Source of the DNA: an uncultured Acidobacteriota bacterium
GTDB taxonomy: Bacteria; Acidobacteriota; Thermoanaerobaculia; Multivoradales; DATKCC01
Assembly: GCA_963739795.1 (NCBI GenBank)
Contig: CAVUBL010000010.1
Location: 410,798 to 474,797, forward strand
Direction: 5' to 3'
DNA: 64,000 nt
The position numbers were made by a program, and so were the translations under genes. Under the pieces are notes generated by a model. The model was not told where the DNA came from and ran no database searches. It saw only the letters and a list, made by a program, of their open reading frames with translations. Below, in pieces: positions 2,889 to 19,865 of the stretch. Position 1 is the first letter of the stretch. The number at the start of each line of letters is the position of its first letter.

Positions 2889-2945
2889 AGCTCCACCCCC
2901 GACGCCCATCACGATCGAACCGAATCCATCTTCGAGGAGCCGCAC

Positions 2946-3968
2946 GTGAGCGTCCAAAACGTGGCCATGCTCGTCAAGCTAGCGGCCTTTCTCCTCCTCA
3001 TGCTGACCATCGTGCCGGTCATGGTCTGGGTGGAGCGACGGGGCGGCGCCCTGATGCAGGACCGCCCCGGGCCCAACCGCCTGGGTCCCCTGGGCCTGAT
3101 CCAGCCGCTGGCCGACGCGGCGAAGTTCATTTTCAAGGAGGACGTCCTGCCCCGGGAGGCGGACCGGCTGCTCTACCTGCTGGCGCCCATCCTGGCGCTG
3201 ATCCCCGCCTTTTCCACCTTCGTGGTCATCCCCCTGGGGCCGACGATCGAGATCGCCGGCCAGCGGATCCCCATGATGGTGGCGGACGTCGACACCGGGG
3301 TGCTCCTGTTCCTGGCGATCGCCAGCCTCGGGGTCTACTCCCTGGTGATGGCGGGGTACGCCTCCAACAACAAGTTCTCCCTCATGGGCTCGATCCGCGC
3401 CTCGGCGCAGATGATCAGCTACGAGCTCGCCCTCACCCTGAGCGTGGTGGCGGTGCTTCTGCCGGTGGGCTCCTTCCGCCTCGACGACGTGGTCACCTAC
3501 CAGGTCCAGCACGTCTGGAACGTCATTCCCCAGTGCGTGGGCTTCGTGATCTTCCTGGTCGCCGCCTTCGCCGAGACCAACCGCCTGCCCTTCGACCTGC
3601 CCGAGGCCGAGTCGGAGCTGGTGGCCGGGTACCACACCGAGTACAGCGCCATGCGCTTCGCCGCCTTCTTCATGGCGGAGTACGCCGGCATGACCGTCCT
3701 CTCGGCGCTCGCCGCGACCCTCTACCTGGGCGGCTGGCACCTGCCGGGGGTCGACCTGGCGGCGATGGGGATCGTGGGCGTGGTGATCGGGGCGATCGTG
3801 TTGGTGGCCAAGATCCTCCTGTTCCTCTTCTTCTTCGTCTGGGTGCGCTGGAGCTTCCCGCGCTTCCGCTACGACCAGCTCATGGCCATCGGCTGGAAGG
3901 TCCTCCTGCCCCTCGCCATCGTCAACCTGATCTGGGTCGCTTCGGCGAGCCTCGCGGGGTGGCTGTGA
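2946..3968 (+). CDS. nuoH: NADH-quinone oxidoreductase subunit H
   Basis: ERR..A.MQDRPGPN, FAETNRLPFDLPEAESELVAGYHTEYS and PRFRYDQLM motifs. Confidence 0.97.
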   Translation: MSVQNVAMLVKLAAFLLLMLTIVPVMVWVERRGGALMQDRPGPNRLGPLGLIQPLADAAKFIFKEDVLPREADRLLYLLAPILALIPAFSTFVVIPLGPTIEIAGQRIPMMVADVDTGVLLFLAIASLGVYSLVMAGYASNNKFSLMGSIRASAQMISYELALTLSVVAVLLPVGSFRLDDVVTYQVQHVWNVIPQCVGFVIFLVAAFAETNRLPFDLPEAESELVAGYHTEYSAMRFAAFFMAEYAGMTVLSALAATLYLGGWHLPGVDLAAMGIVGVVIGAIVLVAKILLFLFFFVWVRWSFPRFRYDQLMAIGWKVLLPLAIVNLIWVASASLAGWL

Positions 3969-13909: not shown

Positions 13910-14853
13910 GGCGGGCCCTCGGACGGCTTCTGATCCCCACTGGAGTCACTGGAGTCCGGGACGGGATCCGGGGTGGCGCCCAGCCCCGTGGCGTGCTTGA
14001 CCAGGGAGACGAAGGTCCGGGCGATGTCGTCGACGGCGACGTAGACGGTCAGGGGATTGTCCACCCCCTCGAGCTCCACGCCCTTGCCGTCGGACGTGAA
14101 GTCGACCACCTGGAAGTGGTCTCCGTCGGCGCGCTGGAGGATGTCGCCGCGCACCGGCTTGTAGCCCACGGGCAGCTCCGGCGGAAGCTCCATTCCTGCG
14201 ACGACGGCCAGGCGGTCCGCCACCTGGACCACGCGCGAGAGGGCGAGGGGCAGGCTCGAGAAGCGGCCGAAGCGTAGCTCGATGCGCCCGTCGGGGCCGG
14301 GCCGGGAGACCGGCGGCGGGCTCTTCATGGACGGCCGGCCCCGGTCGCCCGCCGGGTCGGGATTCGGAGCCCCCGGCACATCCAGCTCGAGCAGGCAGCT
14401 CTCGACCCAGTCCCCCTCGACCGTCAGCGGATCGGGGTCGACCTCCGAAAGGTCCTCCCGGCGGAGCTGGTCGAGGGTCGCCGCCAGCTCGTCCGGGCCC
14501 AGCTCGCCCAGATGCATCGCCTCCTTGCCGAGCGGCCCCTGCCGCAGGCGCACGGTGCCGTTGGCGAACAGGGTCACCTCGCGGCGGTCGATGCGGCTTC
14601 GGCAGTCCAGCCGCAGCAGGACGTGAGACCGGGGGTCCGTGGAAACCGCAGAGGGCTCGGGGAGCGGGTTGGGCCGGCCGGCTGTGTCCGGCTTCGAGCC
14701 GGGTTCCTGTCCGGATGGCTGGCCGGCTTCCTGACTCCGCTGGACGAGCGGCTGGTTCGAAGGCTCCTGGGCGGCAAGGCGGGAGCCGCCCGCCGCCAGG
14801 GTCGCCACCAGGAGCAGAGCGAGGACCAGGACCTCTCGTAGGCGGTATGTCAT
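13906..14853 (-). CDS. Hypothetical exported protein
   Basis: ATG overlaps upstream stop; hydrophobic signal MTYRLREVLVLALLLVATLAAG; 3' part of ORF 13906..16410. Confidence 0.6.
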   Translation of the reverse strand: MTYRLREVLVLALLLVATLAAGGSRLAAQEPSNQPLVQRSQEAGQPSGQEPGSKPDTAGRPNPLPEPSAVSTDPRSHVLLRLDCRSRIDRREVTLFANGTVRLRQGPLGKEAMHLGELGPDELAATLDQLRREDLSEVDPDPLTVEGDWVESCLLELDVPGAPNPDPAGDRGRPSMKSPPPVSRPGPDGRIELRFGRFSSLPLALSRVVQVADRLAVVAGMELPPELPVGYKPVRGDILQRADGDHFQVVDFTSDGKGVELEGVDNPLTVYVAVDDIARTFVSLVKHATGLGATPDPVPDSSDSSGDQKPSEGPP

Positions 14854-17573
14854 CGATTGCCCTCCCCCGCCGGACCGGCGGCCACCGGCTGGGCCTCCTC
14901 CTCGTCCCGATGGACGAGCTCGAGGGCGAGCTCCAGCTCTTGCTCGGGGCCGATCCGCCCGTCGAGGCGGGCGTCGCGGACCGCGGCGAGGGCCTTGCCC
15001 ACGAGCGGCCCGGGCGCCACCCCCCGGGCCACCAGGTCGCGGCCCCGCACCGTCAGCTCCAGGCGACGGAGCTCGGTCAGGTCGCGCCGCGCCCAGGCGC
15101 GGACCGGCTCGTTCTCCGACGCCACAAGGAGGAGGATCTCTTCGCCCGCCAGGTGTCCCAGGGCCGCGGCCACCCGATGAGCCGCCAGCTCGGGGCGGGC
15201 GAGCAGCTCCCGCGTCCGGGCGAGCCGCGAGGCGCTCCCGACGAGCAGGGCCCGGTCCGCCCCCGCGAGCATGAGCCGATCTGCCAGGGCCTCGCCGGCG
15301 GCGAGATCCCGGCCGGCATCGCGCTCCCCGCCGGTTCCCGCGACCAGGGCGAGGAGCAGGAGGCGCCACAGGCGAGCCGGAGGCTCGTCCAGGCCCTCGA
15401 CCGAGTACCAGTTCCAGGCCACGACCACCCGGCGCAGGCTCTCCCGGTCCCCTTCGGCGAGGTGCAGGGAGGGGTGGAGCGCCTCGAGCACGCCCAGCCC
15501 GTCGAGGCGCTCGAGGCCGCGGACCGCGAGGGCCGGGTCGTCGAGCAGGAGGACGAGCTCCTCGCGCAGGCGACTGCCCGAGAGGCGGTCGAAGACGCCC
15601 TCGGCAAGGGCCACGTCCACCAGGTTCAGGGTCTCGGGGGAGATCTCGAACCCGAGGCGGAGGCCGAGCCGCACCGCCCGCAGGACCCGGGTCGGATCGT
15701 CGATGAACGACAGGCTGTGGAGCACCCGGAGGAGGTGGTTGTCCAGGTCCCGCCGGCCGCCGAAGTAGTCGATCAGCTCCGGCGACGGCTCGGGCCCGAG
15801 GCGCACCGCCAGGGCGTTGATCGTGAAGTCGCGCCGGTAGAGGTCCTGGCGCACGGGCGAGGTCTGGACCTCGGGCAGGGCCGCCGGGGCGCGGTAGAAC
15901 TCGCTGCGCGCCGTGGCCACATCCACGTGGAAACCCTCCGGGTCGATCACCACCGCGGTCAGGAACGCCTCGTGGACCCGCACCCGCCCGCCGAGCTCGG
16001 CGGCCAGGAGGCGGGCGAAGTGAGGGCCATCCCCCTCCACCACCAGGTCCAGGTCCCGGTTCTCGCGGCGCAGCAGGAGGTCCCGAACGATCCCCCCCAC
16101 CAGGTAGACGGGGATCTCGCGGCGGCGGGAGACCTCGGCGACGGTTCGTACCCGCTCGTAGACCGCGGTGGGCAGGCGTTGGCGCAGGAGGTCGCCCACC
16201 GCGAGGCGCTCCTCGGGCAGGTGGGCCAGGCGTCGCTCCACGCCGCTCCCCGCCTCCCGCAGGCGGCCGTGGAGGTGACGGAGCACCTGCATCCGGGTGA
16301 CCAGGCCGGCGGCCTGCCCGCTCTCCCGGTCGCCCACCAGGATGAGGCGCGGGTGGCGACGGGTCATACGCTCGCCGACCTCGTCGGCCGGCGCGTCGGG
16401 CTCCACCCACTCCAGGTCGCGGTCCGCCACCGTCTCGACCCGCCGCTCGCCCAGCCCGTGCTGCAGGGCGCCGTCCAGGGTCTGGCGGGTGACGACGCCG
16501 ATCGTCCGGCCCCCGGGCTCGACGATGGGCGCGGCGTTGATCCGGCGCGCGACCAGGGCCTCCTTGGCCTCGGCGACGGTCTGGTCGAGGCGGAGGGTGA
16601 AAAAGCCCGTGACCATGAGGTCCGCGGCCCGGGCCGAGGGCGGAAGGTTGCGCTCGAGAAACGCGCGCAGCGACTCGCGGGCCTCCAGGGGGGTGACTCC
16701 CTTGAGGCGGGCGGAGGCCGCCGTGGCGTGACCACCGCCGCCGGCGAACGCCTCGAGCAGCCTGCCCAGGTCGACGCCCGGCTGATCTCCCCGCGCAATC
16801 ACCGTCACCCGGTCGCCCTCACCGAAAAGGGCGAAGAGCAGGGGGAGGTCGAAAATCTCCAGACAGCGGTTGACCAGGGGCGCCAGCTCGTCCACGTAGT
16901 CGCCCAGCTCGAGGGCCACGTAGCCCACCCGGCGTCCCCGAACCCCCTCGACCTCCAGGGCCTCGGTCATCCGGTGGAGGATGTCGAAACGGCTCGGGTC
17001 GAGTCGCTGGAGGGCGTGGCGCCGGACGACGGAGAGGTCGGCGCCACGCTCCAGGAGGCCGGCGACGGCCCGCAGGTCCCGGGGCCCGGTCCCGGAGTAC
17101 GCCAGGGATCCGGTGTCCTCGTAGATCCCCAGCAGGAGGAGTGTGGCCTCGACGGGTGTCGGAGCGTAGCCCCGCTCCGCGAAGATCTCGGCAAGGAGGG
17201 TGCAGGTGGAGCCTGCTCCGGGGTCGACGCGGCCTCCGGCGACGGTCAGGTCGCCCTCGGACGGTGCGTGGTGGTCGTAGGCCCAGAGCTCGATGGCGGG
17301 GTTGGCGGCAAGCCAGTCGGCGACGACGCCGATGCGGTCGCGCTGGACGACGTCGCACAGGACGAGGCGGGTGACGCGGGCGGGGTCGACTTCCTTCGGG
17401 CGGAGCTCGGTAAAGGGGATCTCGTTGCCGAAGGGCCCTTCCAAGAGGCGGCGGACGGACTCTTCCTTGGAGCCGGGAAAGAAGACGCCGGCTCCGGGAT
17501 GGAGCTTGCGGGCCATGAGGACCGCGCAGGTGGCGTCGAAGTCGGCGCCCAGGTGGGTGGTGACGATCTCCAT
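14850..17573 (-). CDS. DHH/DHHA1-CBS-tRNA nucleotidyltransferase (CCA- or A-adding enzyme)
   Basis: HLGADFDA, YDHH, GGGH (DHH family); CBS pair; GGIVRDLLL..DLDLVV, RRDFTINA and DDPTR class II NTase motifs. Confidence 0.9.
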   Translation of the reverse strand: MEIVTTHLGADFDATCAVLMARKLHPGAGVFFPGSKEESVRRLLEGPFGNEIPFTELRPKEVDPARVTRLVLCDVVQRDRIGVVADWLAANPAIELWAYDHHAPSEGDLTVAGGRVDPGAGSTCTLLAEIFAERGYAPTPVEATLLLLGIYEDTGSLAYSGTGPRDLRAVAGLLERGADLSVVRRHALQRLDPSRFDILHRMTEALEVEGVRGRRVGYVALELGDYVDELAPLVNRCLEIFDLPLLFALFGEGDRVTVIARGDQPGVDLGRLLEAFAGGGGHATAASARLKGVTPLEARESLRAFLERNLPPSARAADLMVTGFFTLRLDQTVAEAKEALVARRINAAPIVEPGGRTIGVVTRQTLDGALQHGLGERRVETVADRDLEWVEPDAPADEVGERMTRRHPRLILVGDRESGQAAGLVTRMQVLRHLHGRLREAGSGVERRLAHLPEERLAVGDLLRQRLPTAVYERVRTVAEVSRRREIPVYLVGGIVRDLLLRRENRDLDLVVEGDGPHFARLLAAELGGRVRVHEAFLTAVVIDPEGFHVDVATARSEFYRAPAALPEVQTSPVRQDLYRRDFTINALAVRLGPEPSPELIDYFGGRRDLDNHLLRVLHSLSFIDDPTRVLRAVRLGLRLGFEISPETLNLVDVALAEGVFDRLSGSRLREELVLLLDDPALAVRGLERLDGLGVLEALHPSLHLAEGDRESLRRVVVAWNWYSVEGLDEPPARLWRLLLLALVAGTGGERDAGRDLAAGEALADRLMLAGADRALLVGSASRLARTRELLARPELAAHRVAAALGHLAGEEILLLVASENEPVRAWARRDLTELRRLELTVRGRDLVARGVAPGPLVGKALAAVRDARLDGRIGPEQELELALELVHRDEEEAQPVAAGPAGEGNR

Positions 17574-17611: not shown

Positions 17612-17688
17612 GGCGCGCTGCCCCAACTGGTAGAGGGGCCCGACTTAAAATCGGGCGGTTCCGGGTTCGAGTCCCGGGCGCGCTACCA
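17612..17688 (+). tRNA. tRNA-Leu(TAA), 77 nt, short variable loop, encoded CCA
   Basis: Acceptor GGCGCGC/GCGCGCT-A-CCA; anticodon arm CCCGA-CTTAAAA-TCGGG; T arm CCGGG-TTCGAGT-CCCGG. Confidence 0.9.
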
Positions 17689-17827: not shown

Positions 17828-18302
17828 CTACTCCACCTCGAGCTCGTAGTCGGTGGTGATCTCGATCGCCTTGTGGATGGACTGGTAGACCGGGCAGTGC
17901 TCGGCGTGGATGCGGTGCACCCGGTCGACCGTCTCCCGGGCCGCCTCCGGCGCCCGCAGCCGGTAGTGCACGTGGATGCGCCGGATCACCAGGACCCGGT
18001 TCACGAGCTCGATCTCGCCCCGCACGTGGGCCACCAACCGCCCCTCGCTCGCATCGACGTGACGCGCCTCCAGCGCGCCTCCCAGGGTCCCGGTCAGTCA
18101 GCCACCGGCGGCGGCCACGATGTAGTCGAGGGTCGTGGCGTGGGGCTCGAAGGCGTCGGCGGGCACGCCGTAGTGCTCGGCGATGGCTCCGTGGACGCCG
18201 AAGACGACCGGCTCGGGCTCGGCCGGCAGGCGGGCGTGGCGCATCGGGACCCCTCTCCCGCTCGATCAGGACCTCGGAAACGTAGGCGACGTCATGACTC
18301 AT
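17828..18302 (-). CDS. OsmC-like protein, probable selenoprotein (in-frame TGA 18098-18100; +1 indel near 18245)
   Basis: Reads ...TLDYIVAAAGG-[TGA]-LTGTLGGALEAR...HCPVYQSI; TGA sits at the first catalytic Cys position; hairpin follows. Confidence 0.75.
18061..18079 (-). promoter_or_regulatory. Candidate bacterial SECIS hairpin
   Basis: mRNA GGCGCGC-UGGAG-GCGCGUC, stem begins 18 nt after the UGA, G at loop position 2. Confidence 0.5.
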
Positions 18303-18348: not shown

Positions 18349-19865
18349 TCAACCGCCGGCGGGATCGCTCACCCGCTCGCGCAGGTCGCCCAGGACGTCC
18401 TCGATCTCCTCGAGCGCCGAGCGCAGGTCGTCGGCGATCTCCTCGGCCAGAAGGTGCGGCTCCGGCAGGTTGGCCGAGTCCTCCAGGCTCTCGTCCCGGA
18501 GCCAGAAGAGATCGAGGCTGAGCTTGTCCCGCTGGGCCAGCTCGTCGTAAGTGTAGGCCCGCCAGCGCCCGTCCGGGGTCTCCTCGGACCAGGTCGGCTT
18601 CCGGTTGTGGCGATCGCCGGGCTGGTAGCAGGCGACGAACTCGTCCAGGTCGCTCCGGGTGAGCGGCCGCTCCTTGAGGGTGAAGTGCCCGTTGGTCCGG
18701 AGGTCGTAGACCCAGACCTCCTGGGTCCACGGCTTGTCCGAGCCCGGCTTGCGATCGAAGAAGAGCACGTTGGCTTTGACGCCCTGGGCGTAGAAGATGC
18801 CCGTCGGCAGGCGAAGCAGGGTGTGCACCTCGGTCTCCCGGAGGAGCTTCCTCCGCACCGTCTCCCCCGCCCCACCCTCGAACAGCACGTTGTCCGGCAC
18901 CACCATGGCCGCCCGGCCGTGGATCTTCAGCAGGCTCTTGACGTGCTGCACGAAGTTGAGCTGCTTGTTCGAGGTGGTGGTCCAGAAGTCGGGGCGGTTG
19001 TAGGTCAGCGTCTTGCGGTCGGTCTCGCCGGCCTCGTTGATCACCGTGATGCTCGACTTCTTGCCGAACGGCGGGTTGGTCAGCACCACGTCGGCGTGGA
19101 CGCTCGGCTCGTCCCGCAGGGCGTCGTCGGTGGCGATCGGCGGGGTCGTCTCGTCGTCGGTCGGGCCGATCCCGTGGAGCAGGAGGTTCATGGCGCACAG
19201 CCGGCTCACCCCGTCCACCAGCTCCACGCCGCGCAGCGCCTCGTACTGGAGGAAGCGCTTCTGGTCCTTGTCGAGGTCGAAGCGCTCGGCCAGGTACTGG
19301 TGCGCCGCCAGCAGGAACCCGCCGGTGCCGCAGGCCGGGTCGAAGCACCACCTCGCCCGGCTTGCGGCTGGACGCACCGGACCATCGCCTCGATCACGCT
19401 CCGCGGCGTGAAGTATTGGCCGGCGCCGCCCTTGACGTCCTGGGCGTTCTTCTCCAGCAGGCCCTCGTAGGCGTCCCCCTTGACGTCGGAGGACATGGAG
19501 AGCCACTCCTCCTTGCCGATCAGGTCGACGATCAAGGTGCGCAGCTTCGCCGGGTCCTGGATCTTGTTCTGGGCCTTGCGGAAGATCAGCCCCAGCATGC
19601 CCCCCTCCTGGCCGAGGGTCTGGAGGGTCTCCCGGTAGTGGGCCTCGAGCTTCTCGCCCTCCATCAGGGGGTCGGAGAGGTCGGACCAGCGGAAGCCCGC
19701 GGGCACCGGCTGCTCGTCTCCGGTGAGCTGCTCGCGCTCGTCCGCCATCTTGAGGAACAGCAGGAAGGTGAGCTGCTCCAGGTAGTCCTGGTAGGAGAGC
19801 CCGTCGTCTCGCAGGACGTTGCAGTAGGACCAGAGCTTGTTGACCAGGCGCGAAGGGTCGGTCAC
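18349..19865 (-). CDS. hsdM: Type I R-M N6-adenine methyltransferase (one indel near 19350)
   Basis: LWSYCNVLRDDG, GAGQYFTPR, FDPACGTGGFL and NPPF motifs across ORFs 19206..19865 and 18349..19953. Confidence 0.9.

Follow-up and report, generated by a model that had tools for sequence, protein, structure and literature searches.

A predicted selenoprotein clade of the OsmC/Ohr superfamily with a conserved SECIS-like hairpin, and an apparently frameshifted copy in an uncultured member of the Acidobacteriota

Peroxidases of the OsmC/Ohr superfamily work with two redox cysteines, a peroxidatic one followed by a resolving one. OsmC-like proteins with selenocysteine (Sec) were predicted in 2005 by Zhang, Fomenko and Gladyshev from the Sargasso Sea (COG1765/YhfA type, with the motif UxxT; PMC1088965), and the family has been carried on in reviews of 2022 and 2026 (PMC9312934, PMC13188914). 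A curated NCBIfam family with Sec members also exists (NF041052, OsmC_like_Se, "OsmC-related (seleno)protein"), and the existence of such proteins, from which an earlier note on this DNA had argued, is thus documented. Here we describe a gene of this kind on the minus strand (17828..18302) of a 64,000-nucleotide stretch of contig CAVUBL010000010.1, from an uncultured Acidobacteriota bacterium; we refer to the whole stretch as the window. From the letters alone, the earlier note had interpreted the gene as an OsmC-like gene containing Sec, with an in-frame UGA and a selenocysteine insertion sequence (SECIS). Our comparison supports this interpretation through a TGA retained in 80 of 80 relatives, homologs with cysteine in its place, and frozen synonymous sites over the hairpin that follows it. 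On this support, the window holds one copy of a selenoprotein gene that is widespread, belongs to the OsmC/Ohr superfamily of peroxidases and carries a bacterial SECIS, and the TGA of the family very probably encodes Sec by way of the downstream hairpin.

The gene and its relatives share with the Sargasso Sea family the domain PF02566, Sec in place of the redox cysteine, a SECIS just 3' of the UGA, and the existence of cysteine homologs. They differ from it, as judged by the description of its motif only, in that the residues following the Sec read ULTGT (UxTxT) with an invariant glycine at position +3, which does not match UxxT. NF041052 is the best NCBIfam match of the window protein, at 21.5 bits (E 1.7e-4) against a cut-off of 95 bits, and the protein is therefore not a member. 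The label of OsmC-like selenoprotein given to the gene by the earlier note thus stands insofar as it denotes a Sec-containing OsmC/Ohr-like gene, and it needs the amendment, which the note had missed, that the clade lies outside the curated family. Public databases name members of the clade only as "OsmC family protein" or "uncharacterized OsmC-like protein."

In the relatives the gene corresponds to an open reading frame (ORF) that in the window would run from the ATG at 18302-18300 to the TAG at 17830-17828, or 157 codons if its frame were intact. The first 19 codons (18246..18302), which encode MSHDVAYVSEVLIERERGP, match the N-terminus of the family, but they are in a frame that differs from that of the rest of the gene, and translation from ATG 18302 continues from them into a nonsense frame. 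The OsmC frame itself, counted with its UGA, extends for 138 codons from an internal ATG (18244-18242) to the TAG (17828..18244). Its minus-strand translation from 18244 to 17828 reads MRHARLPAEPEPVVFGVHGAIAEHYGVPADAFEPHATTLDYIVAAAGG, then the TGA, then LTGTLGGALEARHV, and continues through HAEHCPVYQS to a final YELEVE before the stop codon. With cysteine substituted for the TGA, this protein matches the Pfam model OsmC (PF02566) over residues 38-131 with 50.4 bits, against a cut-off of 27.5. Thus, the OsmC frame spans the TGA at 18098..18100 and is coherent on both sides of it, as had been proposed. This TGA aligns with the first, peroxidatic cysteine of OsmC and is the putative Sec codon. 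The CPV motif that had been noticed 3' of it is also present; its TGC codon (17894..17896) specifies a cysteine that is invariant in the alignment (C117-P118), aligns with the CPV of 1ukk, and is presumably the resolving residue. The list of ORFs does break the gene into pieces of 48 and 69 amino acids. What did not hold was the choice of ATG 18302 as an in-frame start: one extra base at 18244-18245 separates it from the OsmC frame. The earlier description of the gene was therefore right about the TGA, the CPV motif, the hairpin and the splitting of the ORF, and wrong about the frame of the start codon, the frameshift having escaped it. Independent sequence, in which a TGC or TGT might have been found instead, has the TGA as well: Logan contigs of three metagenome runs (X1, X3 and X4), all independent, match it exactly. 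The ortholog that we used for comparison, at locus L001, is 90% identical (blastn aligns its positions 2942-3407 with window positions 18304-17838), and dN/dS between the two is 0.24.

To place the gene among its relatives we drew on a protein search, which returned 1083 clusters and in which the residue at the TGA column was tallied for the top 120, and on a scan of one genome per species, which returned at least 585 relatives, the best 80 of which were kept as DNA. TGA occupies the Sec column in all 80, with coding sequence kept on both sides of it. Most of the 80 come from Acidobacteriota; the others come from Binatia, Chloroflexi, KSB1, Nitrospiraceae, Desulfobacterales and Dormiibacterota and include an isolate, Geobacter argillaceus. 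Selenoproteins have been reported in Acidobacteria, Chloroflexi and Geobacter (PMC1794560). The relatives are about 157 residues long and begin with MSxVVYVSxVxIERxxGPxRxAxLPAE, of which the segment MSxVVYVSxVxIERxxGP is in frame in 80 of 80. Their own stop codons are TGA in 38 cases, TAA in 21 and TAG in 21. Because 38 of the 80 genes terminate with TGA, we take TGA to be a normal stop in the organisms that carry them and their code to be standard.

Of the top 120 protein clusters, 83 have W at the Sec column, 30 have C, 4 have G and 2 have L. The presence of cysteine at this column was a check that had been proposed for the Sec assignment, and it bears the assignment out: TGT and TGC codons were confirmed in the DNA of L088, L089 and L090, and there are natural cysteine forms with 60-73% identity. 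The tryptophan is another matter. It is found in P0002, P0005 and about 80 further clusters, and at loci L081-L083 and L094. The DNA of P0002 and P0005 has TGA, translation with table 11 does not give the database protein, and the database version of P0002 runs on past the true TGA stop (INWCC). We conclude that tryptophan at the Sec column of public proteins is mostly an artefact, a false residue that arises because TGA has been translated with another code table. Apart from TGT and TGC, rare codons at this position are TGG (P0007), GGA (P0020) and TTA (P0093), and all of the non-Sec variants are one base away from TGA. We also observed that the hairpin is kept at the loci in which the TGA has been replaced by GGA (L084), TTA (L085-L087) or TGG (L091-L093), and that the TGG form is in addition without its start codon. 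These Gly-, Leu- and Trp-codon relatives seem to have lost the catalytic residue recently.

The hairpin (18061..18079, minus strand) consists of a 5' arm, GGCGCGC (18079-18073), a loop, UGGAG (18072-18068), and a 3' arm, GCGCGUC (18067-18061). The stem of 7 base pairs (bp), its loop, and its start exactly 18 nucleotides (nt) past the TGA are all as the earlier note had given them; the loop begins 25 nt past the UGA, and the minimum free energy (MFE) is -11.8 kcal/mol. The published model of the bacterial SECIS (bSECIS) allows a loop of 3-9 nt with a G within its first two positions, a stem of 4-16 bp, 16-37 nt from the UGA to the loop, and an MFE of -7.5 kcal/mol or lower (PMC13188914). With its 5-nt loop, 7-bp stem, 25-nt spacing and energy of -11.8 kcal/mol, the hairpin lies within every one of these ranges, and UGGAG fits the loop pattern N1-G-[G/U]-N-N2. 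Its likeness to a SECIS, first suggested from the letters alone, is thus upheld by comparison with the published model. Like the SECIS of Escherichia coli fdhF and the bSECISearch consensus, it is a stem-loop within the coding region after the UGA with a G at the start of a small loop, and its spacing and energy are within the ranges of the model. The fdhF loop starts about 18 nt after the UGA. The hairpin of the clade is unlike fdhF-type elements in the later start of its loop, 25 nt after the UGA, and in having no bulged U. It also stands apart in that its stem is a nearly invariant GC block formed by the codons GGC-GCG-CTG-GAG-GCG-CGY, and in that it matches no Rfam model.

The evidence that the hairpin matters as RNA comes from an alignment of 81 sequences from the TGA onward. 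The RNAalifold consensus over these sequences is the same hairpin, with 93% of cells paired and with all variation compatible with wobble pairing (G-C to G-U and C-G to U-G, in one pair each). Entropy at the fourfold-degenerate sites of hairpin codons +7, +8, +9, +11 and +12 is 0.33, 0, 0, 0.19 and 0.99 bits, respectively; at fourfold sites elsewhere in the same 81 genes it is 1.4-1.9 bits, which is saturated. The bases of the hairpin are confined to those compatible with pairing or with the G of the loop (GGY GCG CTG GAR GCG CGY). GCG is used at the two alanine codons of the hairpin in 81 of 81 and 79 of 81 genes, as against about 30% at other invariant alanine codons. Likewise, 79 of the 81 Sec forms encode GGALEAR or GGALDAR across the hairpin, compared with 19 different heptapeptides among the 30 cysteine clusters, and the loop G, which has been lost in two of five non-Sec variants (CTC and CTA), has been lost in none of the 81 Sec forms. 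The hairpin is thus, on this comparative evidence, under selection at the RNA level beyond what coding for protein would impose. Since the stem is nearly invariant, the support for it comes from constraint at synonymous sites and not from covariation. Pairing of alignment columns 8-12 with 16-20, which would give a small first hairpin past the UGA and ahead of the main stem, was also considered and was rejected as no better than shuffled sequence.

The relationship of the clade to OsmC and Ohr is distant at the level of sequence and plain at the level of fold. A phmmer search of the PDB with the read-through protein detected no relative at E <= 0.01, and OsmC structures were reached only by a family profile search and a fold search. 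The family profile weakly reaches Ta0195, Thermus thermophilus OsmC, Bacillus subtilis OhrB and E. coli YhfA, and its alignment to 1ukk places the Sec column on the cysteine of AGCFS and the CPV on the CPV. For the fold search we used the AlphaFold2 (AF2) model of P0001, a cysteine homolog with 73% identity (pLDDT 96.6), in which the N-terminal region forms strands at residues 11-16 (the first beta-strand) and 19-23. The best Foldseek matches of this model were 2onf, 1ukk, 1lql, Ohr and OsmC (E 4e-9 to 1e-6), with TM scores of 0.6-0.8 and a probability of 1.00 at identities of 9-18%. The clade thus shares with the two-cysteine reductases (1ukk, 1nye/1qwi, 1usp, 2bjo and 6eb4, among others) a common fold, a first redox residue located in a long helix, a second located in a CPV-type motif, and an equal spacing of the two. 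It differs from them, apart from the low identity, in having Sec in place of the peroxidatic cysteine, about 20 extra conserved residues at the N-terminus, and the clade-specific invariant residues H18, H24, Y25, D40, E79 and R89 (numbered in the 138-residue protein). No conserved gene neighbors were found in the 80 loci, the commonest neighbor cluster being present in 10 of them, and the neighborhood therefore suggests no functional partner.

By the mechanism known from other bacteria, the UGA at 18100-18098 would be read as Sec in the following way. SelB carrying Sec-tRNA(Sec) would bind the apical loop of the hairpin GGCGCGC-UGGAG-GCGCGUC, which has G at loop positions 2-3 and would act as the SECIS, and would deliver Sec to the ribosome paused at the UGA. 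The predicted product, from its homology, is an OsmC-fold protein of about 157 residues in which Sec would stand for the N-terminal peroxidatic cysteine and the cysteine of CPV would be resolving. By analogy with OsmC/Ohr, the Sec would attack a hydroperoxide to give a selenenic acid, which the CPV cysteine would capture in a selenenyl-sulfide; thioredoxin, a lipoylated protein or another thiol donor may then reduce this bond. The hydroperoxide reductase activity of the clade, its substrate and its reductant are things that we infer by this same analogy.

Several observations weigh against reading the window gene as a working selenoprotein gene, and they concern the hairpin, the decoding apparatus and the state of this copy. 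In a window with a G+C content of 69%, hairpins of this type are common: of its 1141 TGA triplets, 80 (7%) are followed by a bSECIS-like hairpin whose stem reaches 7 bp or more, and in 43 of these (3.8% of all TGA triplets) the free energy is -11 kcal/mol or lower. Indeed, dinucleotide shuffles of the 45-nt and 69-nt contexts of the hairpin fold about as well as the contexts themselves (z = -0.45 and +0.66), and Rfam gave no SECIS or relevant family, either for the whole window at gathering thresholds or for 17950-18150 at permissive E-values. Because the hairpin is unexceptional within so GC-rich a window, it gains significance only when relatives are compared, and in that comparison no compensatory double changes in the stem were seen among the 81 sequences. 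Moreover, an alternative stem (alignment columns 14-20 with 28-34), mutually exclusive with the main one, is also 92% paired across the family, which makes the exact fold of the SECIS less certain. No selA, selB, selD or tRNA-Sec was found in the 64-kb window, in which the Pfam scans for Sel domains covered about 30 of some 52 candidate reading frames, including the longest; the only tRNAs called there are tRNA-Leu, tRNA-Cys and tRNA-Gly, and no tRNA-Sec lies near the gene in 60 related loci. For every member of the clade, moreover, the insertion of Sec is itself deduced from sequence. Finally, the frameshift of the window copy occurs in none of the 80 relatives and is unique among the 81 sequences, and the gene lies at the edge of an insertion of about 35 kb, beside a broken hsdM.

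How much do these points favor other accounts of the TGA? Were it an ordinary stop, either a nonsense mutation or the boundary between two small genes, the hairpin would be a chance GC-rich stem, and the frequency of similar hairpins after 4-7% of the TGA triplets of the window and the lack of an Rfam match are as this account would have them. It fails, however, to accommodate a TGA column present in 80 of 80 diverse relatives with coding conserved on both sides, the cysteine of the homologs, and the frozen synonymous sites over the hairpin, and we consider it scarcely credible. An altered code, with TGA read as Trp or Gly, is what the database W at 83 of the 120 top clusters would suggest, but the W entries that were checked (P0002 and P0005) proved to be TGA under another code table, 38 of the 80 genes use TGA to terminate, and the carriers belong to phyla with a standard code; this account is the least credible of all. 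The alternative stem has two mismatches in the window and leaves the constraint at columns 36 and 39 without explanation; we keep it as a possibility, notably for G. argillaceus. In that isolate (L078:3145-3204) the main hairpin is broken, with GCAAGG for GCGCGY, the sole such case among the 80 loci; there is instead a 9-bp hairpin, CCUUCGGCG-GUG-CGCUGGAGG, that begins 10 nt past the UGA. This sole good hairpin of L078 is an extended version of the alternative stem.

The status of the window copy itself depends on the extra base at 18244..18245 (minus strand), where CCC-G-ATG-CGC is found in place of the CCC-GTT-CGC of L001, following short runs of GGGG and CCC. If the base is a real one-nucleotide insertion, ribosomes starting at ATG 18302 would enter about 230 codons of nonsense frame, and the copy would be a recently inactivated pseudogene whose lesion is the insertion, the TGA being ancestral. 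In keeping with this, the frameshift is without parallel in the alignment, and the adjacent hsdM is split as well (at position 48/49 of the N6_Mtase model, by one or two indels near 19340). Other long genes of the window are intact, such as AcrB (1021 of 1021 model positions) and a 907-residue PolyA_pol-CBS-DHH protein, so that indels are not frequent across the assembly. In addition, homology to L001 stops a few dozen nucleotides upstream of the ATG, where the insertion of about 35 kb starts, and the native upstream region would thus have been lost. On the other side, the 19 displaced codons still encode the conserved peptide of the family, dN/dS is 0.24 overall, and the TGA, the SECIS, the CPV motif and the signals for expression are all intact. 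The latter are a strong Shine-Dalgarno (SD) sequence, GAGGAGG, at 18315-18309 and a sigma-70-like promoter, TTGACC-16-CAGAAT, at 18352-18325, both upstream of ATG 18302 on the minus strand (one promoter-like site, as compared with 0.0 expected in shuffles). The base follows GGGG and CCC runs, and reading the CCC as CC restores a perfect match to the family consensus (GPMR), with ERGPMRHARLPAE across the junction. Inactivation by a real insertion is accordingly a possibility to which we would give somewhat less than even weight.

Long-read assemblies make length errors at short runs such as GGGG and CCC, and the chance that the extra base is such an assembly error is in our judgment about even. 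A contig from run X5 that is 94% identical is also one base shorter at 18244. Contigs identical to the window over 18244-18293 were found in none of 13 metagenome runs, and two exact-pattern scans of metagenome contigs for the frameshift site gave no matches. Taken together, the displaced peptide, the dN/dS, the intact SD and promoter and the context of short runs favor an artefact of assembly, or else an event of very recent date. An N-terminally truncated selenoprotein, translated from the internal ATG that the insertion created, is a further alternative: this ATG (18244) sits 5 nt past a purine-rich, SD-like run, GGGAGAGGGG (18259-18250, minus strand), and the 138 codons that remain hold the whole of the Pfam OsmC match. 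The 19 residues that would be missing, however, include the first beta-strand of the AF2 model and are conserved in 80 of 80 relatives, and P0007, the sole database homolog to have been called from the same methionine, has the N-terminal peptide in frame upstream, carries TGG for TGA and looks degenerate. We therefore regard a truncated product as unlikely. We also set aside the idea that ribosomes shift by +1 in a programmed way at the CCC-G that follows the SD-like run, as none of the 80 relatives needs it.

The surroundings of the gene have features of their own. In L001 the OsmC gene directly follows cysS, tRNA-Cys and tRNA-Gly; in the window these are found at 53.6-56.2 kb, and the intervening stretch of about 35 kb (about 18330-53580) has no counterpart at the syntenic position of L001. 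Its genes include hsdM and hsdR (type I restriction), AcrB, an outer-membrane efflux protein (OEP), a zeta toxin, a KAP NTPase, a NACHT-FGE-sulfatase protein, an IrrE-like peptidase with a helix-turn-helix (HTH) domain, DUF4145 and RadC. The stretch has the appearance of a genomic island that lies beside tRNA genes. A block of 380 bp containing tRNA-Cys and tRNA-Gly is inverted relative to cysS. The gene hsdM, for the type I restriction methylase (18349-19865, minus strand), is split between two frames, with HsdM_N and N6_Mtase positions 2-48 in one and positions 49-275 in the other. The break lies near 19335-19355, and the sequence suggests either one deletion or two one-nucleotide insertions about 15 nt apart, just before DPACGTGGF.

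On the other side of the gene lies a tRNA (17612-17688, plus strand) with the anticodon UAA that was called as tRNA-Leu. Bacterial tRNA-Leu is a class II tRNA. The window tRNA measures just 77 nt, has a variable loop of 5 nt and is of class I shape; its body resembles phage tRNA-Asn and tRNA-Lys, G1 pairs with U72, A73 is present and the CCA is encoded. The tRNA-Leu(UAA) of L001 is normal, at 83 nt with a long arm, and its stems are unrelated to those of the window tRNA. Directly adjoining this odd tRNA is the gene for the 907-residue protein (14850-17573, minus strand), which combines DHH, DHHA1 and CBS domains and the head domain of poly(A) polymerase/CCA-adding enzyme in one chain.

A more far-reaching picture, to which we give somewhat less than even weight, is the following. 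A Sec-containing OsmC/Ohr-like clade, uncatalogued and distinct from OsmC_like_Se, may be frequent among soil Acidobacteriota and in several other phyla (at least 585 matches in species-representative genomes), with its SECIS frozen into the codons for GGALEAR and its members hidden in databases under a tryptophan, and the window copy may be one that was left at the border of the 35-kb island and lost its frame only recently. Selenoproteins are systematically overlooked by gene callers, which here leave fragments of 48 and 69 amino acids; most of the relatives in public protein sets carry a false tryptophan at the catalytic residue. Because a clade abundant in soil escapes the curated selenoprotein model, genome annotation would under-count the use of selenium in the phyla that carry it. 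The near-invariant hairpin would serve as a simple and specific search pattern, and the clade may offer a clean system for testing the recognition of SECIS by SelB outside Proteobacteria and Firmicutes. Given natural cysteine forms at 60-73% identity, a direct comparison of catalysis by Sec and by cysteine would also be possible. The known principles of Sec decoding are unchanged by these findings; their value lies in an abundant and mis-annotated clade with an unusually clean SECIS.

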